Notes under the pieces: generated by a model | The model's database searches: none | The model's input: only the letters and a program-made list of their open reading frames with translations | Told to the model about the DNA's origin: nothing | Origin: Spirochaetota bacterium | Lineage (GTDB): Bacteria; Spirochaetota; UBA4802; UBA5550 | Reading direction: 5' to 3' | Assembly (NCBI GenBank): GCA_012730035.1 | Contig: JAAYBQ010000044.1 | Span: 1 to 42,649, forward strand | DNA: 42,649 bases | Shown here: in pieces, positions 17,771 through 34,702 of the stretch | Position numbering within the stretch: the stretch's first letter is position 1 | Layout: each line of letters starts with the position of its first letter | Translations under genes and position numbers: made by a program

Positions 17771-20458
17771 ATGGAAAAAAAAGAGAGTGCAGCTGAACCC
17801 TTTGAGGCATGGGTCATACTTGGCCGGGGATGCAGAATAGCAGGCCACAATAAGGAATTTGAACAGCTTTTCGGAAGCGAGGTCACATCAGGCGGCAGGT
17901 TCTGTCTGCAGGGGCATGACGGCGGGCAGCCATGCTCGTCATGCCTGGTTGATGACGCTGGCGATTTTCCTGAAATGACACTGTTGTCCGCTGACAGGGA
18001 GATTAACGGCAGGATGTACAGGATGCGATTCAAGCGGTTCCTGTACGGCAGCGGTTATGAATCCCTTGTGGCAGGAAGAATAATGGAGAGCGCAGTTGCG
18101 GACGCCATGGCTGTGCAGGCTGTTTCATTTTTCCAGAACTATATTTCGGCGCTCGAATCTGTAAAGGTGCTGCCGTGGAAGCTTGACCTGAATAATTTTA
18201 AACTCTACAACCAGTTCAATGAAAGACTGGTTTTCGGGCCCGGACTCTCGGGCGTTAATCTTGAGGCATGGATTGAACTGACTCATCCCGATGACAGGAC
18301 TGTATTTATGCCCGCCATTGATTCAATGATCAGGGGGGATCAGGGTGAGTTCGATGTGGACTACAGGATAACGGACGGCAAAGGGGGCTGGCGCTGGGTG
18401 CATATTAACGGCATCGTAAACCAGCGGGACAGTTCGGGCAGGGGGCTTTCTGCAAACGGGTATGTTCTTGATACGACCGTTGTAAGGGGGCTTGAGGAGC
18501 GTATAAGGGAAAGGGAGACAAGGCTGCGCGACAGCGAGAGCAGGCTTGCGAGCGCAATCAGGCTGGGGCGCATGTCTCCCTGGGAATATATTTTCAGCGC
18601 CGACAGGTTTATAACAAACCGCCAGCTTTCGGACTTCTGGGGATACGGCGATTATTATGACAGAAAGGAACCCGTCGGCAGAGAGGCCCTTGCGGGCAGG
18701 ATCCACCCCGAAGACCGGAAATTTGTGGTCGAGCAGTTTGAAAACGCGGTCTCCAGGGGCGAAAATTCTGAAATGGTCTTCAGGCTGGTAGTCGAAGGCC
18801 AGGTAAGGTATGTGCATTTTACATGGGAGGCTGTGTTTGAAGATGGCATACCGGTTAAACTGGTCGGTATTGCCCAGGACCTGACTTCGCTGCGCGCGCT
18901 GGAATCACAGCTTGAAAGGAAGGACGAAGGACTTAAGTTTATAACCGAGAGGATCGGTATAGGGCTCTGGTACATAAACGTGGCCGAAATGAAGCTCTAT
19001 CTTATGAGGGATGAATACAGCGTTGCGGGCGCGGGCGACACTTCGATTATACTGGGGCTTGATGAATTTTTTATCGCGCTTCATCCCGAAGACGTCACAG
19101 GGAGCAGGCAGTGGATCGGAAGGCTGTTAAAGGGACTTGATGATACAGGCGAAACGGAGTTCCGCTTTAAAATAGGCTCCGAGTACAAGTGGTTCAGGAT
19201 ATCAGCCGCGATCAACAACCGCGATGAGGGCGGGAACCCTTTGACCCTGAGGGGGCTTTTCCAGGATATAACCGAACGCAAGGAGATTGAAACAAGGCTC
19301 TACCAGTCGCAGAAGATGGAGGCCATAGGCAGGCTTGCCGGCGGAGTGGCGCACGATTTTAACAACATACTCCAGGTGATACTGGGGTACGGGAGCCTCG
19401 CGCTCATGGACGTTGACAACGGGAGCGAGATGTTCGAATACATAAGCAACATAGTAGATTCGGGCGAGAAGGCGCGCAGCCTTGTAAGACAGCTTCTGCT
19501 CTTTGCCAGGAGGGAGAAGTTCAAGCCCGAGCCTGTCTTTCCCGATGATCTTATAAACGGCCTTACCATGATGCTCCGGCGCGTAATAGGCGAAAATATT
19601 ACCCTTGAGTTTATACCCGGAGGGGACGCGCGCAGCATCTTTGGTGATTCGGGCCAGCTTGAACAGGTTGTGATGAACCTGTGCATTAACGCGCGTGACG
19701 CGGCAAATGGGAACGGCTCTGTCGTAATAAGGACAAAAAACGTGATTATCGATGAACCCTGGCCATGCTTCGACAGCATAATGCAGCCCGGTGAATATTC
19801 AATGATAAGCGTGACCGATACGGGCGTCGGCATTCCCCCCGAATACCATGACAGAATATTTGAACCCTTCTTTACCACCAAGGAGAAGAACAGGGGAACC
19901 GGGCTGGGTCTGGCAACAGCCTACGCCATTGTCAAGCAGCACCGCGGGTATATTGACTTTCACAGTATCCCGGGCAAGGGGAGCACGTTTACAGTCTACC
20001 TGCCGGTTTATAGCGACGGGCCGGAGGGTGTTGAGAAGGAAGAACAGGGAAGCGTTGACGATAATTACAGCGGCAGGGGAACAATACTTATCGCGGAGGA
20101 TGACGAACTTATACGCAGATATACATGCAGAATACTTGAGGATTCGGGATTCAGCGTGATTACGGCAACCAACGGGCTTGAAGCCGTTGAACTTTACGGA
20201 AAACAGAGCGATGCTGTTGACCTGCTTTTACTGGACGTAATAATGCCCGGTATGAACGGCTGGGACGTGTACAATAATATACGCGGGCCCGAACTGAAAC
20301 TCCCCGTGGTCTTTTTCAGCGGGTATGACGAAAACCTTCTTCCGGGAGACTTTAAGAGCGAAATGCCCATGAGGTATGTGCAGAAGCCATTTAAGTACTA
20401 CGATCTTGTAAAGGCTATACAGGAACTGCTGGAACAGGCAGGGCAGGGCAGGCCGTAA
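17771..20458 (+). CDS. hybrid sensor histidine kinase (Cys-rich N-terminus, multiple PAS/PAC, HisKA, HATPase, C-terminal receiver)
   Basis: H-box GGVAHDFNNILQVILGY, N-box VVMNLCINARDA, G1 VTDTGVGIP, G2 GTGLGLATAYAIV. Receiver motifs are ILIAEDDE, DLLLLDVIMPGMNG and VQKPF. PAS/PAC-like repeats include WRWVHINGIV and KWFRISAAIN. Confidence 0.9.
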   Translation: MEKKESAAEPFEAWVILGRGCRIAGHNKEFEQLFGSEVTSGGRFCLQGHDGGQPCSSCLVDDAGDFPEMTLLSADREINGRMYRMRFKRFLYGSGYESLVAGRIMESAVADAMAVQAVSFFQNYISALESVKVLPWKLDLNNFKLYNQFNERLVFGPGLSGVNLEAWIELTHPDDRTVFMPAIDSMIRGDQGEFDVDYRITDGKGGWRWVHINGIVNQRDSSGRGLSANGYVLDTTVVRGLEERIRERETRLRDSESRLASAIRLGRMSPWEYIFSADRFITNRQLSDFWGYGDYYDRKEPVGREALAGRIHPEDRKFVVEQFENAVSRGENSEMVFRLVVEGQVRYVHFTWEAVFEDGIPVKLVGIAQDLTSLRALESQLERKDEGLKFITERIGIGLWYINVAEMKLYLMRDEYSVAGAGDTSIILGLDEFFIALHPEDVTGSRQWIGRLLKGLDDTGETEFRFKIGSEYKWFRISAAINNRDEGGNPLTLRGLFQDITERKEIETRLYQSQKMEAIGRLAGGVAHDFNNILQVILGYGSLALMDVDNGSEMFEYISNIVDSGEKARSLVRQLLLFARREKFKPEPVFPDDLINGLTMMLRRVIGENITLEFIPGGDARSIFGDSGQLEQVVMNLCINARDAANGNGSVVIRTKNVIIDEPWPCFDSIMQPGEYSMISVTDTGVGIPPEYHDRIFEPFFTTKEKNRGTGLGLATAYAIVKQHRGYIDFHSIPGKGSTFTVYLPVYSDGPEGVEKEEQGSVDDNYSGRGTILIAEDDELIRRYTCRILEDSGFSVITATNGLEAVELYGKQSDAVDLLLLDVIMPGMNGWDVYNNIRGPELKLPVVFFSGYDENLLPGDFKSEMPMRYVQKPFKYYDLVKAIQELLEQAGQGRP

Positions 20459-20465
20459 CACAGGG

Positions 20466-20486
20466 CCCGGGGACTCACCCCCCGGG
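20466..20486 (+). terminator. GC hairpin downstream of the kinase stop (weak intrinsic-terminator candidate)
   Basis: CCCGGGG-actcacc-CCCCGGG (7-bp stem) starts 8 nt after the TAA at 20456-58. It is followed only by gTTATTA, so the U-tract is poor. Confidence 0.3.
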
Positions 20487-20549
20487 GTTATTACCCGATG
20501 TGACAGCCCCTTCGGGCATCCGCTCCCGAACAGAGCGCAGCGTCTTCGA

Positions 20550-20801
20550 GAGGTGCAAACTTCCACCTCTGAGGTCCAAACTTCCACCTCTGAGGTCCAA
20601 ACTTCCACCTCTGAGGTCCAAACTTCCACCTCTGAGGTGCAAACTTCCACCTCTGAGGTCCAAACTTCCACCTCTGAGGTGCAAACTTCCACCTCCGGGG
20701 TCCAAACTTCCACCTCTGAGGTCCAAACTTCCACCTCTGAGGTGCAAACTTCCACCTCCGAGGTCCAAACTTCCACCTCCGGGGTGCAAATTTCTATCCG
20801 C
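20550..20801. repeat. tandem array of 12 x 21-bp units, consensus GAGGT(G/C)CAAACTTCCACCTCT; the last unit is degenerate
   Basis: Unit boundaries counted by hand: 20550, 20571, 20592, 20613, 20634, 20655, 20676, 20697, 20718, 20739, 20760, 20781. Position 6 by unit reads G C C C G C G C C G C G. Units 7, 10 and 11 end in C instead of T. Units 8 and 12 start GGGG. There are no spacers, and five of the six reading frames are open across it. It lies between two convergent genes. Confidence 0.95.
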
Positions 20802-20909
20802 GAGGCATGACGTTCCACCCCTTTGAAACAAAAATAATCATATTCTTATGAAGTTTTTACCCGGCAGTACCTGGTTTGAGCATACCGCCGGGAATATGAA
20901 GTGCATTAA

Positions 20910-21386
20910 TCAGGAGGATTGTTTTTTCGGGGACTTTTTGCCAGGGAACCTGGATGAAAGGTCATCGAGTATGCTCCCGGCCTTTACCACATTAGCCTTT
21001 TGCGCGTATTTAACCGAATTGTAGAACATAAGCGCCGCGGAGTAGGCATCGCTCCCTGCTATTGCCATGCTGTCAGAGAGCGAGGCTGAAATCTGGCTGA
21101 TGGGCCCGTGCAGTGAACGCAGTGTTGCCACGGCATTTACGTCGCACCTGAATTCATCCATGTCCAGAAATGGAGGCGCAAGCTCGGGATTTAAAGAGCT
21201 GTGCTCAAGCGCCTTCTCGACAAAGGCAAGGGTCTTGTCACCCATTTTGGGAAGCTGGTTTTTATCGTCCCCTTTTAGATTTTTCAGAAGGGGGAGCAGC
21301 TTTGTGTTAAGGGTGGCAATAGCCTTTTTGATCTCCGAGAGATCCTGTTGAGACGGATTGAAAGAAATTAGATTTTGTTGGGTCAT
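20910..21386 (-). CDS. conserved hypothetical protein (family with an LPKMGDK...F(V)EKALE...NPEL(A/V)PPFLD motif)
   Basis: 158 aa counted from the ATG at 21386, which has AGGAG 6 nt upstream. The track start at 21392 (GTG) sits just downstream of that SD. I recall the motif pattern from widespread uncharacterised bacterial proteins, but this was not verified. Confidence 0.7.
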   Translation of the reverse strand: MTQQNLISFNPSQQDLSEIKKAIATLNTKLLPLLKNLKGDDKNQLPKMGDKTLAFVEKALEHSSLNPELAPPFLDMDEFRCDVNAVATLRSLHGPISQISASLSDSMAIAGSDAYSAALMFYNSVKYAQKANVVKAGSILDDLSSRFPGKKSPKKQSS

Positions 21387-21428
21387 ATTCACTCCTTTTA
21401 GTGATGTTTTTTTGTTCTTATTACATCA

Positions 21429-21457
21429 AAATAGAGCAATTACCAATAAAAGAGTCA
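21429..21457 (-). promoter_or_regulatory. candidate promoter for the 20910..21386 gene
   Basis: Minus strand: TTGACT (21457-52), a 17-nt spacer, then TCTATT (21434-29). It lies about 40 nt upstream of the ATG, and phased A-tracts lie further upstream. Confidence 0.25.
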
Positions 21458-21969
21458 AGCATTATTCTGTAAATAGTGTCAAAAAATTATAAAAAATACT
21501 AAAAATTTAGGTTTTTTGGTGCGGAAGTCTCTAAATTTCCCGCATATACTATACAAACGAATGGGACACTCTGTGTCGTACCTGCTGTGATATTATAAAT
21601 TAAGCATTATTTTATTAAGGATTGCTCTCTGTTTCGGATGCCAGGTATGTAATTTTATGCTTGAAGTTTGCGGTAAAAGGGTCTGAACCTTTATTCAGGG
21701 ATTAAAGGTTTAAGGAATTGGCATGATTTAAAACAATGAATTTTTTTATGAAGAGAAATTTGCACCAGGGCAGATAATTTGATACAAAATCCTGTTAATC
21801 CTGCTGTCATGATAATCATGCTTCAGACGATTAGGTAAAAGTTCAGGCAGAGCATAAAAGGTTTGATTGATAAATTGTTCAGGAATAAAAGCTGAACAGA
21901 ATTTTCAGGTATCTGATAAAGAGACGGGGTGCTGGAGATGGAGCAGCAGATGAATATGCGGAGGTTAAG

Positions 21970-24900
21970 ATGCCGGGATTCACACTGATTACGGGCAACA
22001 GGCTTGAGGTGCTTGCAGAGATGTGCAGCGCTGACCTCGCGGCCTATCCGCTGCCCCCCATGCAGGGGGAGGTTATATGCGTGCAGAGTATGGGCATGAT
22101 GAAGTGGCTTACGCTCAGGCTCGCTGAAGCGAACGGAGTATGGGCCAACTGCAGGTATATCTTTCCCAATAACATGTCATCCATGCTTCTTGAGGGCTTT
22201 TTTCCAGGTTCGGGGAACGAACGGTATTTTGACCGCGCGTCAATCCCCTGGCAGATTATGCGGGTGCTGAAGTCGGTTATGAACAGGCCCGTATTCAGCC
22301 AGATAGCTGAGTACACAGGGGATGACCCTTCAGGGGTCAGGATGTACCAGCTCTGTTCAGCTGTAAGCGATGTTTTTGACCAGTACATGACCTTCAGGCC
22401 TGAAATGATTAATGCCTGGGACAGGGGTGGTGATGCAGATCTGTGGCAGGCTGAACTCTGGAGGCTGGTAACCCGGGAGCTCGACTCGCAGAGCCCGCCT
22501 TCTCTCCTTGAGAGGCTTAAGCCCATGCTCCGTTCTGAAGGGTTCAGGCCCGCAGGGGACCTTCCGCGCAGGCTTACTCTGTTCGGCATATCATATCTGC
22601 CGCTATATCACATAAACCTGCTCTTTGCCGCTTCGTCATTCACAGATATACGCATGTACATGCTAAATCCATCTGAGGCTTACTGGGGTGATATTCTGGG
22701 TGAAAAGGACAAGCTGAAGATTATTTCAAGGTTCCCCATACCCCCATCTGATCCTGAAGCCGACCTTCACCTTGATTCGGGCAACCCGCTGCTGGCCTCG
22801 ATGGGCAGGCCGGGGCGTGACTTTATCCGCAGCATATTCTCTATGGACTGTGACACGGAGCAGAATTTTTATGAACCCGAAGGCGGAACGCTGCTGGCAA
22901 TGGTGCAGCAGGATATATTCAACATGACCGACAGGTCCCGCACCGGCGAAAAACTCACACCCGGGCAGATTGCTGATGATACTTCCATAATAATAAATTC
23001 CTGCCACAGCCCCATGCGTGAAATTGAGGTTCTGCGCGACTACATTCTTGACCTGTTTAACAGCAATGACGGGCTTGAACCGCGCGATATTATTGTCATG
23101 GCCCCCGATATTGAAATCTATTCGGGATGCGTTGAACCGGTGTTTTCGGGCAGCGGCACGGGCAAGGACATACCATTCAGGATTGCCGACAGAAAGCCCG
23201 CGGCATCGGAGCCTTCTATCGCGGCGTTCCTGGAACTGCTTGACCTGCCCGGTTCAAGGTTTACCGCTTCGCGGATAATCTCGCTGCTCGACTGCGCTGA
23301 AATTTCGGGGCACTTCGGATTTAACCTGCAGGAGAGGGAAAGGATAGCATCGTGGATAAGGGATACGAACGCGCGCTGGGGAATTGACGCGGAGTTCAGG
23401 CGAAAAATGAACCTGCCCGCGGATGAAGCCAATACATTCAGCGCGGGCATTAAAAGGCTTATTACCGGGCTGCTCGTTTCGGGCGATGAACCCTGCCTGG
23501 GGGTGCTACCTCTTGAATCTGCCGACCCCGGCGATTCTCTGCTTATGGGCAGATTTATTACATACATAAAGACCCTTGAAGAGTCCTGCCGGAACCTCAT
23601 GTCTGAGCATACACTACACGAGTGGTACGACATACTTATGTTCATGATCAGTTCACTCTTCTCTACGGTTGAGGGTGTTCCCGGCGCGATGATGCCCGTT
23701 ACGGACGCGGTTTCACTTTTGCGACAGGCCGGCATAAGCTCCGGTTTTTCTGACAGCGTCGGTATTGCGCCCGTTAAAGAATTTATTGAATCACGCATGG
23801 CATCGCCGGGCTCTGTGAGAGATTTTATAAGCGGTGCTGTCACATTCTGTGAAATGCTCCCCATGAGAAGCATCCCGTGCAGAGTTATCTGCCTGCTTGG
23901 CATGGACGCGAAGTCTTTCCCCGGAAGGTCTGCTTCGCGCGGATTTGACCTTATGGCGGCAAAGCCTGCAAGGGGGGACAGGTCTGTCAGGGACGAGGGG
24001 CGCTACTTGTTTCTTGAAACCATAATCTCGGCCCGGGACAGGCTGTACATAAGCTACACCGGGCAGAATATAATAAACAACACGACCAACGATCCCTCGC
24101 CTGTGGTGAGCGAACTTCTTGATTACATAGCCTCTTTCGGCAGCGCGGCTGAGGCTGATGAAATACGCAGCGCTATGATCACGCTGCAGAAGCTTAACAG
24201 GTACAGCAGCGGATACTTTCTGCCGGAAAGCGGACTCTACAGCTTCTCACCGGTGAACATGAAAGAGGCAGAGGCTGCGATAAAAAATCCGTCAGCATCG
24301 CCCCTCTTCTTCAGCGGCCCGCTACCCGCAGCCGGGGGCGAATACCGCCTGACGACCGCAGACCTTGCATGGTTTATGCGCAGCCCGGCCAGGGCCCTGT
24401 GCGTTTCAAGGCTGGGCATTTCTCTTGAGATAAAAGAGACCGCCCCCCTTGACGACGAGCCCTTTGAGATTGACCGCAGAACCGGTTACAGCCTTAACGG
24501 CGAGCTGCTGCAGGTTATGGCCGGCGGCGGCGACACGCAGCCGCTCTTTGATAAAATGAAGGCCGCGGGAATGCTGCCTCACGGCGCGGCAGGCAGGGCT
24601 GCCTTTGATAAATCTGCCGGCGGCGTAAAGAGGTTTATAGAGATGATTCCCGGCGCCTTTGCCCGGCCCGAAAATTTCGCAGGCTGCGAAGTCACCTGCC
24701 GTGGCGTGCATCTGCGGATTAAGCCATGCACTCTTTACGATGGGGAACCTGTATTTGCCGCCCCCTTTGGGCTGCGGAGCCTTGACCTTTTAAGGTCATG
24801 GATTGAACACCTTGTGCTCTGCGCCTGCGGTAAAAAAATTCGCACCCGTATTTTTTACGGCGAAGAGTCCAGGGGGAATTATTCCGTTAAACAGGCTGTG

Positions 24901-25233
24901 TTCGATTACGCTGCTGACGCGCAGTCACTGCTTGAAAAGCTCGCGGACCTTTACGTTGAGGGTATGAACGGGCCCGTGGAGCTCTTTCCTGAAAGCTCGC
25001 GCGCCTTTGTTGAGGCATTCAACAGTCCGGGCAAAGATGAGCCCCTTGCGAAAGGCATGAAGGCTGCGCGCGAAAGGTTCTACAACTTCAGGTATCCTGA
25101 AAACGCGGATCCATACATACTTAAGGTTTTCGGCAGCGGTTATTCTCCGGGCAGAAAGTTCAGGGATACGGCACTGGCGGTTTACGGCCCGGTCTATGAA
25201 AACATGGCAGGGGAGGTGCAGGGTGATGAATGA
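21970..25233 (+). CDS. recC: exodeoxyribonuclease V gamma subunit RecC
   Basis: 1087 aa starting MPGFTLITGNRLEVLAE, a RecC-type N-terminus. GGAGG lies 5 nt upstream of the ATG. It is followed by recB and recD with overlapping stop/start codons. Confidence 0.9.
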   Translation: MPGFTLITGNRLEVLAEMCSADLAAYPLPPMQGEVICVQSMGMMKWLTLRLAEANGVWANCRYIFPNNMSSMLLEGFFPGSGNERYFDRASIPWQIMRVLKSVMNRPVFSQIAEYTGDDPSGVRMYQLCSAVSDVFDQYMTFRPEMINAWDRGGDADLWQAELWRLVTRELDSQSPPSLLERLKPMLRSEGFRPAGDLPRRLTLFGISYLPLYHINLLFAASSFTDIRMYMLNPSEAYWGDILGEKDKLKIISRFPIPPSDPEADLHLDSGNPLLASMGRPGRDFIRSIFSMDCDTEQNFYEPEGGTLLAMVQQDIFNMTDRSRTGEKLTPGQIADDTSIIINSCHSPMREIEVLRDYILDLFNSNDGLEPRDIIVMAPDIEIYSGCVEPVFSGSGTGKDIPFRIADRKPAASEPSIAAFLELLDLPGSRFTASRIISLLDCAEISGHFGFNLQERERIASWIRDTNARWGIDAEFRRKMNLPADEANTFSAGIKRLITGLLVSGDEPCLGVLPLESADPGDSLLMGRFITYIKTLEESCRNLMSEHTLHEWYDILMFMISSLFSTVEGVPGAMMPVTDAVSLLRQAGISSGFSDSVGIAPVKEFIESRMASPGSVRDFISGAVTFCEMLPMRSIPCRVICLLGMDAKSFPGRSASRGFDLMAAKPARGDRSVRDEGRYLFLETIISARDRLYISYTGQNIINNTTNDPSPVVSELLDYIASFGSAAEADEIRSAMITLQKLNRYSSGYFLPESGLYSFSPVNMKEAEAAIKNPSASPLFFSGPLPAAGGEYRLTTADLAWFMRSPARALCVSRLGISLEIKETAPLDDEPFEIDRRTGYSLNGELLQVMAGGGDTQPLFDKMKAAGMLPHGAAGRAAFDKSAGGVKRFIEMIPGAFARPENFAGCEVTCRGVHLRIKPCTLYDGEPVFAAPFGLRSLDLLRSWIEHLVLCACGKKIRTRIFYGEESRGNYSVKQAVFDYAADAQSLLEKLADLYVEGMNGPVELFPESSRAFVEAFNSPGKDEPLAKGMKAARERFYNFRYPENADPYILKVFGSGYSPGRKFRDTALAVYGPVYENMAGEVQGDE

Positions 25234-28200
25234 GTTCAGTGTCCTTGATTCCCCGCTTGAAGGGACCAACCTTATAGAGGCCAGCGCAGGTACAGGCAAG
25301 ACATGGACCATAACAATGATCTACCTGCGCCTTGTTGTCGAGAATGAACTCCCTGTCGAGTCCATACTGGTGGTAACCTTTACCCTGCCGGCGACTGCTG
25401 AACTGCGCTCGCGCATAAGGCAGTGCATCAAGGGCGCCGTGGACTACTTTGAACATGGCGCGAAAGTGGATAACAGCATCGCGGACATAATCGAAAAGAA
25501 CAGGCAGAGGCCCGGGCTGCGCGAAAGGCTCCACTGGGCGCTGCGCGGATTTGACGAGGCATCGGTCTTTACAATTCACTCGTTCTGCCAGCAGGTGCTT
25601 TCGGACAACGCCTTTGAAAGCCGTTCACCCTTCAGGACCGCGATAACCACTGATGACCGCAAAAGGGTTCTCGCTGTAACTGACTACTGGAGGCGCACAG
25701 TATATGGCATGCCGCCGCATGCCGCCAACGTGTTAATGTCATCGCTGGGCCCGGATTTACTCCTGAGAATATACAAAAAGAGGCCGATGTCTCCTGAATA
25801 CAGGCTCAGGCCCGGGCTCGCAGACGCGGGGCCCGATGATGTTGAGTCCGCATATTCCGCAGTATGCGCCTGCTTTGAATCGCTCCGGCCGGTGTGGATT
25901 GAGCATGGTGATAATGTGCGCGCACTTATGAGCTCTACTGCATCTTTAAACGGCAATAAGTACAGGGCTGACCGGATACCGGTATATATCGCGGCCCTTG
26001 AAGACTATATTACGAAGGGTGACCCGCTGTTGTGGAACGACCGGGTGCTTAAGTTCACTCAGAGCGCCATTCTTGCGGGGACAAACAAGGGCAAGGTTCC
26101 GCCACAATCACCCTTCTTTGAAGCGATGGAGCTTATGAAGTCCGGCATGGATCGTTACAATGATACGGTAAAACGCTTCAGGATAACCGTTATAAAACAA
26201 CTCTTTGAATCGGTATCAACGGAGACTGCAATGCAGTCGCTTTCGTCTGGCGAGAGGGGTTTTGATGATCTCATAAGGGATGTCTACCTGGGGCTTGTTT
26301 CGCATTCGGGCAAACGCCTTGGAGAAAAGGTCAGGAGCAGGTACAGGGCAGCTCTCATAGACGAATTCCAGGACACCGACAGCATGCAGTTCGCCATATT
26401 CAGTTCCATGTTCGGCAGCGGCACTGCGCTCTTTATGATTGGAGACCCGAAGCAGGCGATATACAGGTTCAGGGGAGCTGACATATTTTCGTACATGCAC
26501 GCAGCCGATATGGCAGGGAGCAGGTACACACTGGCAAGGAACTGGAGGTCAACTCCGGGGCTTATTGACGCGGTAAACCGGGTCTTCGGCGGCTGCGAAA
26601 ATCCCTTTGTTTTTGAAAAAATAGGGTTCAGCACCGTAATGCCGGGTAAAGAGGGGCAGTGTGATGACCTGATCGGACCCGGCGGCAGTGTGAGCCCCCT
26701 TGTTTTTGAGATCGTTGATTACATTGCCGAAGCTGATGAACATGAACCGGACAGGGACAGGGTCATCGCTGCAAGGCTCGCGGCAGAGATAAGCTCTATG
26801 CTTGCCCGGGGTTACTCAATCGGGGGGAAAGACCTTGTGCCAGAAGATATTGCCGTGCTTGTGCGTACCAATAACCAGGCTGCCATTGTCAAGGCCTCGC
26901 TCGCGGCAGCGGGCATACCAGCCGTAACGCGCAGCACCGGTTCGGTCTTCAGTTCGGCAGAGGCTGCGGAATTATACTTTGTGCTCTCTGCAATTCTTGA
27001 CCCCGCGGACCAGAGAAGGCTTCGCACCGCCCTTGCCACGGGATTGTGTGGATTCAGCGCCGGTGATATTGCGCTGATGGCTGGCGACCATGGCGCAGCC
27101 GCTTCTGAAAAGGGTGAGGGCGCATCGTCGCGTTTTTTTATTTACAGGGAGGCGTGGAACAGGGGCTTCATGGAGATGTTCACCATGTTCATGCGCGGTG
27201 AGGATGTTGCAGCGGGGCTTTTCTCGTGCGCGGGCGGCACCAGGAGAATGGCAAACCTTCTTCATATAGCCGAGCTGCTTCGCGATGAGGCTGCTGAGAG
27301 CAGGCTTGGCCCCGCTGATACGCTCGACAGGCTGGCCCGCTACATTGCCGATCCCCCCGAAGGTGACCTTTACAGCATGAGGCTTGAAACCGATGACATG
27401 GCCGTGAAGGTTATGACCGTGCATTCATCCAAGGGGCTGGAGTTCCCAGTGGTATTCTGCCCCTACCTTGCGTCAGCATCCGGCAGGGGTGAGGATGTGA
27501 CCGTTTACCACGAGAATGACGGCAGCGGGAGCGTGCCCGTTCTATATCTTGACAACGAACTGCCCGGGGATGTAAAGCTTCGCAGGGACGAAGAGGACAG
27601 GTCTGAAACCGCAAGGCTTATATACGTTGCACTTACCAGGGCTAAATCGCATTGCAGGGTTATGATTAAGATAACTGCCGGTTTCGGCAAAACCGTGCTT
27701 TCGGATATACTCTTTACCTCAAGAAGCCGGTTAAAGGCTATGATCACAGGTGATATTGATGATGAAAGCGCGGAGCTTATGCTGAAGATTATTTCAGAGG
27801 ATTCAGGGGGATCAATCGGTTTTATCCGTGGTCAGGGTTTTGCGGCCGGGGCCGCGGTACAGGCGAAGCCTGTACCGGTACTGCAGTGCAGAGAATTTAA
27901 AGGTGACCCCTCGCAGCGATGGAGGATGTACAGCTATTCGGCCATAGCCGCGTCCCTGCACGACAGGGATGAAAAGGATGATGAAGGCAGCGTTGTCTCA
28001 TTCAGGCCCGCTGCCTGCGTACTCCCTCCGGGCGCAAGGTCAGGGCTATGCCTGCACGAAATTTTTGAAAACTGCGATTTTACCTGGGAGAGCAGGGAGC
28101 TTTTTGCTGAAAAAGCGGTTGAGTCCCTGGACAGGTACGGTTTCGGCAGCGGGTACGCCGGGCCCGTAACAGATATGGTTATAAATGTGCTGCGTTCGCC

Positions 28201-28723
28201 GCTGGACGGTGACGGCCTGCGGCTTTCGCTTATTGGACAGGATGAGCGGCTGAGCGAACTTGAGTTTCACTTTCCCGTAGAGGCGGTTGCCGGCCTTAAA
28301 AAGTTCATGCCGGGTTATGACCCTGACCAGCGCGCATACACAGCACCTGATGACCTGCCCGCTATGAAGGGTATGATGAAGGGCTACATTGACCTGGTCT
28401 TTACTTACGGCGGCAGGTACTACATAGTGGACTGGAAGTCGAACATGCTCGAGCTTTCGCATGGTGATTATTCAGCTGAAGCGATGTCAGCCGAGATGAA
28501 CAGGCATAACTACCACCTTCAGTATCATATATATACCGTTGCGCTTCACAGGTACCTTGCCATGAGGCTGGGCGACAGTTACGATTACGAAAAACATTTC
28601 GGCGGGGTCTTTTACCTGTTTATACGCGGCATGAACGGTACGGGTAACGATGGCGTTTTCAGCGCCCGGCCGGAACTTGAAATTACCCGGCAGCTTGACA
28701 GTATATTCAGGGGGCATGAATAG
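25226..28723 (+). CDS. recB: exodeoxyribonuclease V beta subunit RecB (UvrD-like helicase plus PD-(D/E)xK nuclease)
   Basis: Walker A EASAGTGKTWTI, then IDEFQDTD, YRFRGAD, RNWRS, VHSSKGLEF and VALTRAK. The C-terminal nuclease motif is GYIDLVF...YYIVDWKSN. The ATG at 25226 overlaps the recC stop by 8 nt. Confidence 0.95.
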   Translation: MNEFSVLDSPLEGTNLIEASAGTGKTWTITMIYLRLVVENELPVESILVVTFTLPATAELRSRIRQCIKGAVDYFEHGAKVDNSIADIIEKNRQRPGLRERLHWALRGFDEASVFTIHSFCQQVLSDNAFESRSPFRTAITTDDRKRVLAVTDYWRRTVYGMPPHAANVLMSSLGPDLLLRIYKKRPMSPEYRLRPGLADAGPDDVESAYSAVCACFESLRPVWIEHGDNVRALMSSTASLNGNKYRADRIPVYIAALEDYITKGDPLLWNDRVLKFTQSAILAGTNKGKVPPQSPFFEAMELMKSGMDRYNDTVKRFRITVIKQLFESVSTETAMQSLSSGERGFDDLIRDVYLGLVSHSGKRLGEKVRSRYRAALIDEFQDTDSMQFAIFSSMFGSGTALFMIGDPKQAIYRFRGADIFSYMHAADMAGSRYTLARNWRSTPGLIDAVNRVFGGCENPFVFEKIGFSTVMPGKEGQCDDLIGPGGSVSPLVFEIVDYIAEADEHEPDRDRVIAARLAAEISSMLARGYSIGGKDLVPEDIAVLVRTNNQAAIVKASLAAAGIPAVTRSTGSVFSSAEAAELYFVLSAILDPADQRRLRTALATGLCGFSAGDIALMAGDHGAAASEKGEGASSRFFIYREAWNRGFMEMFTMFMRGEDVAAGLFSCAGGTRRMANLLHIAELLRDEAAESRLGPADTLDRLARYIADPPEGDLYSMRLETDDMAVKVMTVHSSKGLEFPVVFCPYLASASGRGEDVTVYHENDGSGSVPVLYLDNELPGDVKLRRDEEDRSETARLIYVALTRAKSHCRVMIKITAGFGKTVLSDILFTSRSRLKAMITGDIDDESAELMLKIISEDSGGSIGFIRGQGFAAGAAVQAKPVPVLQCREFKGDPSQRWRMYSYSAIAASLHDRDEKDDEGSVVSFRPAACVLPPGARSGLCLHEIFENCDFTWESRELFAEKAVESLDRYGFGSGYAGPVTDMVINVLRSPLDGDGLRLSLIGQDERLSELEFHFPVEAVAGLKKFMPGYDPDQRAYTAPDDLPAMKGMMKGYIDLVFTYGGRYYIVDWKSNMLELSHGDYSAEAMSAEMNRHNYHLQYHIYTVALHRYLAMRLGDSYDYEKHFGGVFYLFIRGMNGTGNDGVFSARPELEITRQLDSIFRGHE

Positions 28724-30542
28724 AGTGAATTACGGGATTGAACAGCTTGAAAAACTCGAGGCTTTCAGCGACATGGACAGGCATGTTGCATTTTACCTCT
28801 CTTCTGTTGACGGGTACGATTCGCCTCTCTTCTTTCTTATGATGATGCTTCTTAGCCGTTCCATCGAAAAGGGTAATGTCTGCCTTTTTACTGAACGGGT
28901 TGCCGGAAGAAGCCTGTCGTGGCTTTCACCCGAAGACCCCGATAACGCCGGTCTTTATGACAGCATTATGCTTCCGGGCGTTGACGAAATTGTATCGTGC
29001 GTAAAAAAAAGTTCCGCCGCAGGTATGGAGGGTGACAGGCTGCCGGTTTTAATTTCGGGTAAGAGCCTCTACTTTCACAGGCAGATGGTATGCGAGAATG
29101 AGCTTTCGGCCATGGTCCGTTCAATGTGCAGAAATATGGATGACCTTCAGCCGCTTGACAGCCTTTTGCCGCTCTTTGGAAAATATTTCCCGCGGGTTGC
29201 CGGGGAGACCGACATGCAGGCTGTTGCGGCGGCAATCTCCCTAAGAAGGGGGCTCTCGGTGATATCCGGGGGGCCGGGCACGGGCAAGACTTCGACCGTG
29301 GTAAGAATACTTTCGCTTATAACAGAGGCAAGGCGGCTTTCGGGGTTTGATACCAGGGTGGCCCTTACCGCGCCTACAGGCAAGGCTGCGGCAAAACTTG
29401 CGCTCTCTGCAAACAGCGGCAGCGACTTGATTTCGCAGGCTGAGTCATTCACCATTCACCGGCTGCTTGGATACGGCCGCAACTCGGGGTTCAGGCACAA
29501 CAGGGGCAATCCCCTGGATTTTGATGTTGTTATTGCTGACGAGTGTTCAATGGCGGACCTGCAGCTTATGCACAGCTTTTTTTCTGCGCTTAAGCCCGGG
29601 TCGCGGCTTATACTTCTGGGTGACAGGGATCAGCTTGCTTCTGTGGAGGGTGGCGCTGTTTTCGGCGATATATGCGGTACAGGTGCTGCCTGGTACAGCA
29701 GGGATATGGCAGCGTGGTGTGCCGGCCTTACGGGGGCGGACCTGTCTTCAGCGGGTGATAAGGGCCCTGCAATTGGTGACTCGCTCACGTTTCTTTCAAA
29801 GAACTGGAGGTTCGGCAGTGAGAGCGGCATAGGCAGGCTCGCGGCTGCTGTCAATTCAGGCGACAGCGACGGGGTCATGGAGATTCTTAAGTCGGGACGG
29901 TTCGCCGATATTGAATACGTTTCGTCGTCGGGGAGCGCCGTTGTAAATGCTGTTATCAAGTCTGCCGCCGGGAGGTATATTGGCGCCGGCGATATTGCCG
30001 CACAGGCTGTCGCGTCGCTTACGGGTTCATTCTGCATACTCACTGCCACAAGAAAGGGTAATTCGGGAATGGAGAGGATGAACCGCGCGGCGGAGGCTCT
30101 TCTTGCGCAGTTGGGTGTGATTGATCCTTCGGCCCTGTTCTACCCGGGCAGGCCGGTTATGGTTACGGGGAATGACTACGCGCTGCAGCTTTTTAACGGC
30201 GACATAGGAATTGTCGAAATTGAGCAGGGTGTAGAGCATGCGGTTTTCAGATTGTCCGACGGAACATCAAGGAGTATAAGGTGCAACCGGCTGCCCGCGC
30301 ATGAAACAGCCTTTGCCATGACCGTGCATAAAAGCCAGGGATCGGAATTTGACGAGGTGCTGCTGGTGCTGCCCGATAAATGGAACCCCGTAATGTGCAG
30401 GGAACTGCTGTACACTGCTGTCACAAGGGGCAAAAAGAGGGTGACCATAGCAGGCACGGAGGATGTAATTCGTAAGATGACCTGTACCGGACTTGAGAGG
30501 ATGAGCGGCCTGAGGCCTAAAATTCACCAGCCTGGAATCTGA
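28716..30542 (+). CDS. recD: exodeoxyribonuclease V alpha subunit RecD
   Basis: Walker A ISGGPGTGKTST, Walker B VVIADECSM, then LILLGDRDQL, TVHKSQGSEF and LLYTAVTRGKK. The ATG at 28716 overlaps the recB stop by 8 nt. The track start at 28650 lies inside recB. Confidence 0.93.
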   Translation: MNRVNYGIEQLEKLEAFSDMDRHVAFYLSSVDGYDSPLFFLMMMLLSRSIEKGNVCLFTERVAGRSLSWLSPEDPDNAGLYDSIMLPGVDEIVSCVKKSSAAGMEGDRLPVLISGKSLYFHRQMVCENELSAMVRSMCRNMDDLQPLDSLLPLFGKYFPRVAGETDMQAVAAAISLRRGLSVISGGPGTGKTSTVVRILSLITEARRLSGFDTRVALTAPTGKAAAKLALSANSGSDLISQAESFTIHRLLGYGRNSGFRHNRGNPLDFDVVIADECSMADLQLMHSFFSALKPGSRLILLGDRDQLASVEGGAVFGDICGTGAAWYSRDMAAWCAGLTGADLSSAGDKGPAIGDSLTFLSKNWRFGSESGIGRLAAAVNSGDSDGVMEILKSGRFADIEYVSSSGSAVVNAVIKSAAGRYIGAGDIAAQAVASLTGSFCILTATRKGNSGMERMNRAAEALLAQLGVIDPSALFYPGRPVMVTGNDYALQLFNGDIGIVEIEQGVEHAVFRLSDGTSRSIRCNRLPAHETAFAMTVHKSQGSEFDEVLLVLPDKWNPVMCRELLYTAVTRGKKRVTIAGTEDVIRKMTCTGLERMSGLRPKIHQPGI

Positions 30543-33430: not shown

Positions 33431-34702
33431 TTATCGCGGTGACTGGTCTTTTTTTGCTGCTCTTTTTTTATTTTTATCGGTTGCGGAACCGCTTTTTACA
33501 GGCTGATCAGCAGGTTTAACCGGTTCATCAGCCTGTTTTTGAGCCTCTTCAGCAGCTTTTTTTGCCTCATCTGCAGCCTTTTTTGCCTCTTCAGCAGCCT
33601 GCTGCCTGTTTAATTCCTCAAGGAGTTCAGATCGTTTAAGTTCGAACCCGATCTTGATAAAATCGGGGTAAAAAACTACTTTAAGAGGATTTGCATCACT
33701 GGAGTATTTTTTAAGTATGGTAATAATAAGGTTAAGCCCCAGCCCCGCACCCTCGGTGTTTTCATCCTCGTCGTTAAAGAAATTGTCATTGCTGAGTCGG
33801 CCAGGCGCGACTTTTTTAAGTATCTGCTCTTTTTCGATCAGGGTAATATTCTGCGTATTGGTTACCCAGATTTCGATTAACTCCATTGTTGACTGGAATG
33901 TTATTGTGTAGAAGCGGTTGTCCTTTTTGGCCAGTTCAAAGAAATTGCTGTTTCCGTTCTCTTCGATTTCTTCCTTGAATTTTTCAAGGAACTCATCGTA
34001 ATTTATTTCAGGGCTCACGTTCAGTGCCGGGGCCATGTATTTCTGGAAGAGTATTTTGTAATTTGCCTTGCTGGCGTTTATGCCGAGCTCCTTGAAACAG
34101 AAGAAGAGTTCACCGGCAAACGCCTGCAGGTTCTGCCTGGTCAGGAGCAGTTCTATGAGCTTGCGCACCAGTTCTGCTGAATCCCTCTCAAGGTCGTATA
34201 TGCGCATTGTTACGCGCCAATCAAGGTCCCTGATCCCCATGCCGCTGCATATTTCGGCTATATTCTGTATAATGTCCTTGACGTTAATGTCGCCCCGCAG
34301 GTCGATCATCTTGATTTTATTAAGATAATTGATTTCGCGTTCATAGAATGGATCAAGGAAGAACTGTTTAAGGTCGCGGTCGTAAATCCACTTGTTCTGT
34401 ATAAGCAACCTTATGAACTCGTCGCGTCCCCAGATGGCAAGGTCCCTGTTGTAGAAACGTTTTCCTTCGTACTGCAGGAGTATGGAAAAGAGTTTAACTA
34501 TATCCTCATCATCTTTAAAAGAGCGCATCAGGGTATCTGCCGCTGTCTGGCGTGGAATAGGCGTGCTCTGGCTGAAGCCCGATTCACGGTAGAGGCTGAA
34601 GTTTCCCATGTATCGTTCTCCCAGGTAATTGACCTGCTGTGTGTTTAGCGAGTTTACCAGTATCTGGTTGAACAGTTTTCTTATGCGTTTATTCACAATC
34701 AC
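33431..34702 (-). CDS. GHKL (histidine-kinase-like) ATPase-fold protein with an unknown N-terminal domain and an Ala/Lys/Glu-rich tail
   Basis: N-box-like KELGINASKANY and G2-box-like TEGAGLGLNLIITILKKY. No DHp/H-box was seen. The C-terminus reads QQAAEEAKKAADEAKKAAEEAQKQADEPVKPADQPVK. Confidence 0.65.
   Translation of the reverse strand: MIVNKRIRKLFNQILVNSLNTQQVNYLGERYMGNFSLYRESGFSQSTPIPRQTAADTLMRSFKDDEDIVKLFSILLQYEGKRFYNRDLAIWGRDEFIRLLIQNKWIYDRDLKQFFLDPFYEREINYLNKIKMIDLRGDINVKDIIQNIAEICSGMGIRDLDWRVTMRIYDLERDSAELVRKLIELLLTRQNLQAFAGELFFCFKELGINASKANYKILFQKYMAPALNVSPEINYDEFLEKFKEEIEENGNSNFFELAKKDNRFYTITFQSTMELIEIWVTNTQNITLIEKEQILKKVAPGRLSNDNFFNDEDENTEGAGLGLNLIITILKKYSSDANPLKVVFYPDFIKIGFELKRSELLEELNRQQAAEEAKKAADEAKKAAEEAQKQADEPVKPADQPVKSGSATDKNKKRAAKKDQSPR

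Follow-up and report, generated by a model that had tools for sequence, protein, structure and literature searches.

A 21-bp tandem array as a putative partner of an orphan helical-protein gene in a Spirochaetota bacterium

Comparison with related loci allows us to describe the 21-bp tandem array at 20550-20801 as what is, judged from the sequences compared, a conserved partner of the neighbouring 160-residue orphan gene, as an array of at least 120 bp lies directly 3' of this gene in 71 of 81 loci (counting loci with at least 250 bp of sequence downstream of the gene). The window, that is the whole stretch of DNA analysed here, comprises 42,649 nucleotides (42.6 kb) of contig JAAYBQ010000044.1. 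Across the related loci the array is linked to the gene, keeps a strict period, follows a dyad consensus and is devoid of coding and RNA signatures. The reading that we favour, and put forward tentatively on the basis of the sequences, is that the array is a series of dyad sites in duplex DNA, phased at two helical turns, that would carry a cooperative nucleoprotein complex, most likely of the adjacent protein acting in cis. The features of the locus are as follows.

20550-20801, no strand assigned: tandem array of 21-bp units, 11 near-perfect and one degenerate (TRF, pattern search and sequence)
20860-20892, minus strand: GC-rich hairpin, CCCGGCGGTA...TACTGCCGGG, starting 17 nt past the stop codon of the 160-residue protein gene (sequence and fold)
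20910-21392, minus strand: gene for the 160-residue orphan protein, the putative partner of the array (ORF, homologue family and 3' array in relatives)

TRF made a single call for the array (20550-20794; period 21, 11.7 copies, 93% matches, score 413). The 21-mer GAGGTSCAAACTTCCACCTCT has 11 head-to-tail matches between 20550 and 20780 with 0-1 mismatches, compared with an expectation of 0 from shuffles. Unit 12 (20781-20801; GGGGTGCAAATTTCTATCCGC) lies on the side of the gene and is regarded as a degenerate edge copy because it has seven mismatches to the consensus. Degenerate edge units are typical of unequal crossing-over. The original prediction, made from the letters alone, had described 12 tandem units here, and both TRF and the pattern search agree with it once unit 12 is counted as degenerate; the sequence likewise has the perfect CACCTC-T-GAGGTG that it placed before units 5, 7 and 10, its CACCTCC in units 7, 10 and 11 and its GGGGT variant in units 8 and 12. 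The units are of a G type (1, 5, 7, 10 and 12) and a C type (2, 3, 4, 6, 8, 9 and 11), and the variable G/C position is a low-information column in the family profile. On the minus (gene-sense) strand the unit reads TTTG[G/C]ACCTC-a-GAGGTGGAAG, which is nearly reverse-complement symmetric and matches the family dyad consensus derived from 60 related arrays. The core ACCTCNGAGGT has 11 copies inside the array and one elsewhere (with one mismatch) in the whole 42.6-kb window. An exact 18-mer search of the GTDB representative genomes and IMG/VR returned single chance-level matches, none of them in an array. Both strands of the array fold more stably than shuffled sequences (z = -6.7 and -6.1), which bears out the predicted folding; since the units are palindromic, this is expected of any such array.

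The array occupies the 451-bp gap (20459-20909) between the convergent ORFs 17771-20458 (plus strand) and 20910-21392 (minus strand), as first reported, with a hybrid histidine kinase gene on one side and the 160-residue hypothetical gene on the other. Five of the six frames are open across it, no start or RBS context was found for the frames over the array and the 196-residue minus-strand ORF at 20228-20818 extends antisense into the kinase gene, again as had been claimed. The stop codon of the 160-residue gene is about 110 nt from the array. The hairpin at 20860-20892 sits where many relatives have an intrinsic terminator and has no U-tract; an AT-rich spacer (20802-20859) separates it from the array. 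The terminator scores in the window are only weak (-7.3), and no sigma-70-like promoter was found within 20300-22000. A scan of the window gave no tRNA and no Rfam match, and an Rfam search of the window and 12 related loci at gathering and permissive thresholds returned only eukaryotic miRNA noise and one tRNA. The gene content of the window is that of ordinary chromosome: a dcw cluster from murE to ftsZ occupies 1.1-13.5 kb, and recC/recB/recD occupy 22-30.5 kb. A replication origin or terminus at the array was considered and rejected, as the GC skew has no switch there. Exact-protein look-ups for the two proteins flanking the array found no record.

The true start of the 160-residue gene is probably an ATG two codons in, at about 21386, because the homologues begin MTQQNLIS. 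The protein has no match in Pfam, NCBIfam, PHROGs, PADLOC or the PDB sequences, and PDB profile searches with family alignments of 23 and 66 sequences gave nothing credible. An AlphaFold2 model is an all-helical bundle (pLDDT 89, pTM 0.70) with a helix over residues 78-132, for which Foldseek found no structural neighbour in the PDB or BFVD. By profile, the family comprises 4,484 clusters at 50% identity (E <= 1e-3), or 2,715 at E <= 1e-10, and there are at least 439 copies on metagenome contigs. It is found in Spirochaetota, Bacteroidota (among the named members Labilibaculum, Saccharicrinis, Sunxiuqinia, Williamwhitmania, Raineya and Flammeovirgaceae), Ignavibacteria and Cyanobacteria (Hormoscilla). 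Nearly all members are annotated 'hypothetical protein', and two names that have been given are evidently wrong. The family is chromosomal, on contigs of up to 5.7 Mb, and is absent from PLSDB and INPHARED (tblastn) and from IMG/VR.

A basic C-terminal tail following an RFPGR motif is conserved in the family, with a median net charge of +3 over 16 residues and a net charge of at least +2 in 89% of members. In the helical core the median net charge is -4, which makes it acidic, and the median pI of the family is 5.8; with its acidic core and basic tail the protein is therefore not a classical DNA binder. Two motifs are tentative leads only: MGDKT, which may resemble one of the omega repressor, and PGR, a possible AT-hook look-alike. 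Omega was not retrieved by the PDB profile search with the family. A scan for specificity determinants by mutual information between protein residues and DNA positions gave high scores along the entire protein, and is uninformative because it is confounded by phylogeny.

The homologue loci examined first all have an array of 21-bp period directly 3' of the gene, and the genes next to the pair vary (recC; Fic/AlaRS; prismane/aminotransferase; exonuclease VII/LytS-LytTR; type I R-M). For almost all of 80 metagenomic loci, autocorrelation of the sequence just past the gene peaks at a lag of 21 or 42, with an identity of 0.4-0.9, compared with at most 0.40 in the upstream control regions of the same loci. 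Period, position and dyad motif recur among homologues down to about 40% identity and in four phyla. We define the module as a homologue of the 160-residue protein gene followed by at least six abutting 21-bp units that fit the consensus, at a distance of about 0-350 bp (<150 bp in most loci); the window locus falls within this definition, with the gene at 20910-21392 on the minus strand, the array and a fitting unit. The complete genome of an isolate, Labilibaculum antarcticum (AP018042.1), has two modules, near 207 kb and 4.33 Mb, each in the order gene, terminator, array, and one of the two arrays exceeds 600 bp and has a 147-bp (seven-unit) higher-order repeat. One Spirochaetota MAG holds members of two paralogue clusters, as judged by locus tags, and the loci examined for these two clusters differ in unit sequence. 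The element was found only beside this gene family, with no copy elsewhere in the window or in the 20-kb Labilibaculum loci, and no copy of the unit stands as an operator upstream of the gene (mean z = 0.39; 3 of 54 loci above z = 2). Past the array, similarity is limited to close relatives, with no conserved distal flank, promoter or second gene. Contig ends often fall inside the arrays.

The anatomy of the array was derived from a comparative set of 60 non-redundant related arrays. Of these, 59 have a 21-bp period. Another spacing is seen at only nine of 633 junctions, and at two of 363 where the units of an array share less than 70% identity with their own consensus; in one array a +1 shift is offset by a subsequent -1 shift, which brings the register back. 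From these counts, substitutions are tolerated and indels are not. The arrays have a median of 11 units (range 6-23 in the set, up to about 30, some being truncated by contig ends). The unit sequences diverge between lineages, with ACCTCnGAGGT, GTTCnGAAC, GCAATTTGC and CTTTGAAyTCAAAG types. A profile free in orientation and rotation nevertheless extracts a common motif of 6.4 bits, compared with 2.7 bits in column-shuffled controls, with the family consensus TTTG.A..yTC-n-GAr..T.CAAA. The reverse-complement symmetry of this motif is strong at one rotation (r = 0.86) and at most 0.29 at all others, and T(-2)/A(+2) is present in 48 of the 60 arrays. The motif faces either way with respect to the gene, without preference (26-38 versus 22-34). 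At the unit's even dyad, AA/TT runs are found in about half of the arrays. The strands show no consistent A/T skew, and G is in weak excess over C on the sense strand in 38 of 60 arrays (p = 0.02). The arrays also have higher-order periods of 42, 63 and 147 bp; these and the degenerate edges indicate that unequal crossing-over and concerted evolution are the probable mode of change.

The strict period, with register shifts strongly selected against throughout the arrays, the degenerate, orientation-free dyad and the pairing of lineage-specific units with a neighbouring protein that is itself lineage-specific are what is expected of phased sites for a symmetric binder of duplex DNA. In the mechanism that we propose, the array would be the cis-acting half of a conserved chromosomal module. 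The other half would be a gene for an all-helical protein of about 160 residues; it is often followed by a terminator, after which come from six to over 23 abutting 21-bp units. A single unit would be a degenerate dyad-symmetric site for a symmetric (dimeric) protein; as 21 bp corresponds to two turns of B-DNA, all of the sites are on the same side of the helix. As duplex DNA, such an array would most likely nucleate a cooperative, phased nucleoprotein filament or wrap of about 130-500 bp. The most probable binder would be a dimer of the adjacent 160-residue protein, which may be loaded in cis because the sites start right after its own gene. The layout of gene, optional terminator and sites would favour action in cis and can be compared with R1 RepA-CIS-ori and P1 repA-incA. 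We infer that the adjacent protein binds the array and that the complex may act as a chromosomal landmark or tether, a roadblock or a titration site.

Some observations sit less easily with this mechanism. Neither a DNA-binding domain nor a fold match is recognisable in the protein, its core is acidic, and no copy of the unit stands as an operator upstream of its gene. The array is strictly 3' of the gene, a hint that it may be connected with transcription, and there are weak sense-strand biases in G.U mismatches and minimum free energy (MFE). The binder might also be some different, unlinked protein. A more specific version, in which the orphan helical protein with its basic RFPGR tail polymerizes in cis on its own 3' array into a stable nucleoprotein body of about 250 bp, is conceivable, and we regard it as doubtful. 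On this version the module would be a self-contained pairing of a protein with satellite DNA, and would represent a widespread class of bacterial chromosomal element that has so far gone unrecognised. Such a body could possibly serve as a chromosomal landmark or tether, as a barrier to replication forks or transcription, or as an epigenetic or titration device. By analogy, we propose that the array may evolve concertedly, with higher-order repeats, in the manner of eukaryotic satellites.

An RNA partner is the alternative that survives best, and we consider it unlikely. Here the array would be transcribed, by read-through or as a 3' UTR, into a multi-unit RNA that the adjacent protein binds or processes, an idea akin to the repeat antitoxin RNA of type III toxin-antitoxin systems or to a sponge RNA. 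The array is always 3' of the gene and in many loci starts 0-50 nt past the stop codon or terminator. Intrinsic terminators (hairpin and T-run) separate gene and array in 28-33 of 55-60 loci, about half, and could set the ratio of gene to array transcripts, as the terminator between gene and repeats does in toxIN; in many of the remaining loci the distance from stop codon to array is no more than a few dozen nucleotides. Most arrays are self-complementary, with folding z < -3 in 42 of 60 (the z-scores come from mononucleotide shuffles and are hence somewhat generous), and a protein with an acidic core and a basic tail is not a classical DNA binder. There is also a slight strand bias, with 705 G.U-compatible mismatches in the sense direction versus 535 (p = 0.03), and the sense-strand MFE is the lower one in 38 of 60 arrays; it is for these two biases that an RNA role keeps its small share of probability.

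The pairing data argue against it, however. Only 48% of the symmetric positions in actual units are Watson-Crick pairs, and the doubly changed pairs are compensated in 196 cases and uncompensated in 208, the same proportion as when the partner is taken from the neighbouring unit; base-pair covariation is thus not above that of the shifted-partner controls. In 13-14 of the 60 arrays folding is no better than in shuffles. One of these is L021, the closest complete relative (protein 89% identical), with z = -0.3 and +1.8. The perfect hairpins of the original prediction, which are present in the window, are specific to its lineage. The arbitrary orientation of the motif, the absence of a consistent A/T skew and the weakness of the sense G-over-C excess also weigh against an RNA, and a strict 21-nt register over whole arrays is not needed by independent hairpins. 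The loci leave no room for a sense promoter, and neither a consistent promoter nor a consistent distal terminator was found in those examined; an Rfam match is likewise lacking.

No support was found for the suggestion that the array is a multi-hairpin sponge RNA or takes part in SD/anti-SD interactions. None of the 60 arrays has GGAGG in half or more of its units (nor is GGAGG/CCTCC frequent in any), the GGA count is low with no consistent strand bias, the folding advantage is lost in L021, and a consistent promoter or terminator and an Rfam match are wanting. The anti-SD resemblance seen in the window is specific to its lineage and, with GGAGG frequent in 0/60 arrays, we take it to be an accident of that lineage. 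A conserved GGA or SD-like motif in the hairpin loops of a discrete transcript, as would mark a CsrB/RsmZ-type sponge or an SD/anti-SD mimic, was accordingly not seen in the 60 arrays, the Rfam search and the promoter and terminator searches.

It is rather improbable that the array is a DNA element independent of the adjacent protein, that is a set of sites for an unlinked nucleoid protein or regulator, or a curved or cruciform-prone insulator or roadblock. Its DNA-level signatures would be identical to those of phased sites for the adjacent protein, the AA/TT runs at the even dyad in about half of the arrays would be at home in it and the protein is free of any DNA-binding signature. A conserved global factor, however, should keep one site, and here the unit sequence and the linked protein both diverge. 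The restriction of the element to this gene family (in the upstream region of the gene, the window and the 20-kb Labilibaculum loci) also stands against independence, as does the finding that, in the loci examined, units differ between the two paralogue clusters of Spirochaetota, a difference that favours a locally encoded specificity.

The two remaining readings are jointly very improbable. A neutral, functionless minisatellite (VNTR) produced by slippage would account for the variation in copy number (L032 and L035 encode an identical protein and have 9.9 and 6.9 units, a difference of three units or 63 bp), for periods of 42, 63 and 147 bp and degenerate edges of the kind left by unequal crossing-over, and for contigs that often break within the array. 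It is ruled out by the presence of the array in 71/81 loci, its 3' position, the period in 59/60 and the conserved dyad motif; recurrence down to about 40% protein identity in four phyla, the register held by highly diverged arrays and the upstream control regions free of such periodicity all run counter to it, and we give it almost no credence. The hypervariable VNTR of the original prediction was right as to copy number and, on the comparative conservation, clearly wrong if neutrality is meant. A coding repeat, in which the array would encode a heptad-repeat peptide or protein at seven codons per 21-bp unit, can be dismissed as scarcely credible: five of six frames are open in the window, yet 44-45 of 71 related arrays (the set used for the frame analysis) have no open frame on either strand, on which ground it was rejected, the window has no start or RBS context and public gene calls over the arrays are inconsistent, one with a two-residue product spanning the array region in L029/L031.

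With the alternatives weighed, the phased operator, iteron or centromere-like array that the original prediction listed among its options is the best supported of them (period 59/60, a symmetric orientation-free motif and no covariation), and its membership among iterons or centromeres does not hold. Its interpretation as a whole survives in the phased array, fails in the SD/anti-SD sponge and missed the link to the 160-residue gene.

By analogy, the module would seem to work most like iteron-type or centromere-type arrays, yet it fails the tests for belonging to either. Iteron arrays lie beside a Rep gene in P1 repA-incA and F repE-incC, and lambda O is paired with the dyad-symmetric iterons of ori-lambda. 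Iterons are head-to-tail units of about 17-22 bp, roughly two turns, in several to about nine copies; in P1 and F they lie downstream of the gene for the binding protein, and the binding is cooperative or titrating. Most plasmid iterons are asymmetric direct repeats, and those of lambda are dyad symmetric. The array resembles them in its period of 21 in the window and in 59/60 arrays and in lying directly beside a gene. It differs in being chromosomal, absent from plasmid and phage collections and free of replication genes nearby, and in its longer arrays (median 11, up to about 30 units) of abutting, dyad-symmetric units without spacers; unlike Rep, the protein is of about 160 residues, all-alpha and acidic, with no winged-helix Rep similarity or family match.

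Plasmid centromeres (parC/ParR, parH/ParG, the omega-binding heptad arrays and tubC/TubR) are repeats coated by small dimeric proteins. The coating is cooperative, by a protein encoded next to the repeats, and builds a higher-order structure, and the repeats diverge fast in sequence. These centromeres are usually upstream of the gene and double as operators, with periods of 7-12 bp and RHH or wHTH proteins. The module shares short tandem repeats that adjoin a small-protein gene and diverge between lineages; in contrast to centromeres, the array is 3', there is no upstream operator copy and the protein is a helical bundle rather than RHH or wHTH. No ParA, ParM or TubZ gene was found among the neighbours in the window and more than 12 annotated loci.

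Type III toxin-antitoxin systems (toxIN, cptIN and tenpIN) have the order repeats, terminator, toxin and occur as modules in variable, island-like contexts; their units are of 34-45 nt in 2-5.5 copies, the RNAs are pseudoknots and ToxN is a beta-rich endoribonuclease. The present module likewise sits in variable, island-like contexts and is similarly compact, with a protein gene, a Rho-independent terminator and a noncoding tandem array. The order is reversed, however, with the array downstream in all loci, the protein is all-helical with no PADLOC or Pfam match, and neither RNA covariation nor strand polarity is seen.

REP/BIME elements closely follow stop codons as imperfectly palindromic units of about 20-40 bp, which in some cases form alternating clusters; REPs are dispersed at tens to hundreds of copies per genome and their partner RAYT is a Y1/HUH transposase. 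The likeness is in partly palindromic units just 3' of a gene; the difference is that the unit here is confined to one array in 42.6 kb and the protein has no Y1_Tnp match. CRISPR arrays are alike in that their short repeats are regularly arrayed, partly palindromic and accompanied by a gene, whereas the units here abut, with zero spacers, and there are no cas genes. No description of such a gene-array module was found in the databases and literature searched. We therefore rate it, on sequence grounds, as a putatively undescribed kind of gene-array module of unproven function, because the tests for known systems failed, there is no Rfam family and the literature searched holds no description.

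If this account is true, a family of thousands of clusters that are now 'hypothetical protein' would gain its first functional handle in the form of a cognate cis element, and a new protein-specified tandem DNA array would join the nucleoprotein landmarks of bacteria (parS, iterons, matS and Ter). The arrays break short-read assemblies and yield spurious ORF calls, and recognizing them improves annotation. Labilibaculum antarcticum is cultured and has a complete genome with two modules, which makes direct experiments possible.

The gene for the 160-residue protein (window 20910-21392, minus strand), with the noncoding 21 bp-period array directly 3' of it, forms a module that lies in the window between the following neighbours.

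17771-20458, hybrid PAS-HisKA-HATPase-REC kinase, convergent with the 160-residue gene
21970-30542, recC-recB-recD operon, divergent from the 160-residue gene

The homologue at locus L021 likewise has recC nearby; the synteny of the module with these window neighbours is lineage-specific only. The surroundings of the module often hold mobile or defence-type genes, as at five homologue loci; these genes include an IS200/IS605 Y1 transposase, Fic, a Pol-beta nucleotidyltransferase, an Mrr-like nuclease and a type I restriction-modification system. Their coordinates are as follows.

L021, 5132-6708
L024, 1521-2588
L028, 7431-7742
L036, 12048-12923
L038, 3227-7596

The presence of these neighbours suggests that the module is located in variable genomic regions.

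Two paralogous modules can occur in one genome. One Spirochaetota MAG holds members of two paralogue clusters, represented by the proteins P0005 and P0172, the assignment of both to the same MAG being based on the locus tags (PK358_12055 and PK358_10490), and the unit sequences differ between the loci examined for the two clusters. The two arrays of Labilibaculum antarcticum, at loci L121 and L122, have one common unit type, TTCCTATC..GA.AGGGAA. The second of these arrays is the following.

L122, 10546-11157, array of more than 600 bp (AP018042.1, about 4.33 Mb)

It contains a higher-order repeat of 147 bp (7 × 21), and several short ORFs of unknown function lie downstream of it, as does a group II intron reverse transcriptase. 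The public record annotates a 102-residue 'gene' inside this array. Odd gene calls over arrays were also seen elsewhere: a '2-residue' product is called across the array in L029/L031 (8498-8905) and a 173-residue ORF over that in L033. Short-read contigs frequently end in the array interior (L021, L022, L023 and L040). The arrays are thus a hazard for both assembly and annotation.

The window has a second tandem repeat of the same period.

33524-33600, 3.5 copies of a 21 bp repeat, within an ORF at 33431-34702 (minus strand)

The ORF encodes 423 residues, with no Pfam match, and the repeat translates to a heptad-like EAKKAA(D/E) repeat close to the C-terminus. This is simply repetitive coding sequence, unrelated to the intergenic array at 20550-20801.

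In the 160-residue protein, an RFPG(R/K) motif is conserved in the region of residues 148-160, and the short tail after it is disordered and basic (median net charge +3), in contrast to the helical core, which is acidic. Asn7, Ser10 and the segment KMGDK(T/S)xxFVxK are almost invariant. Together with the RFPG(R/K) motif and its basic tail, these may be elements that contact nucleic acid.
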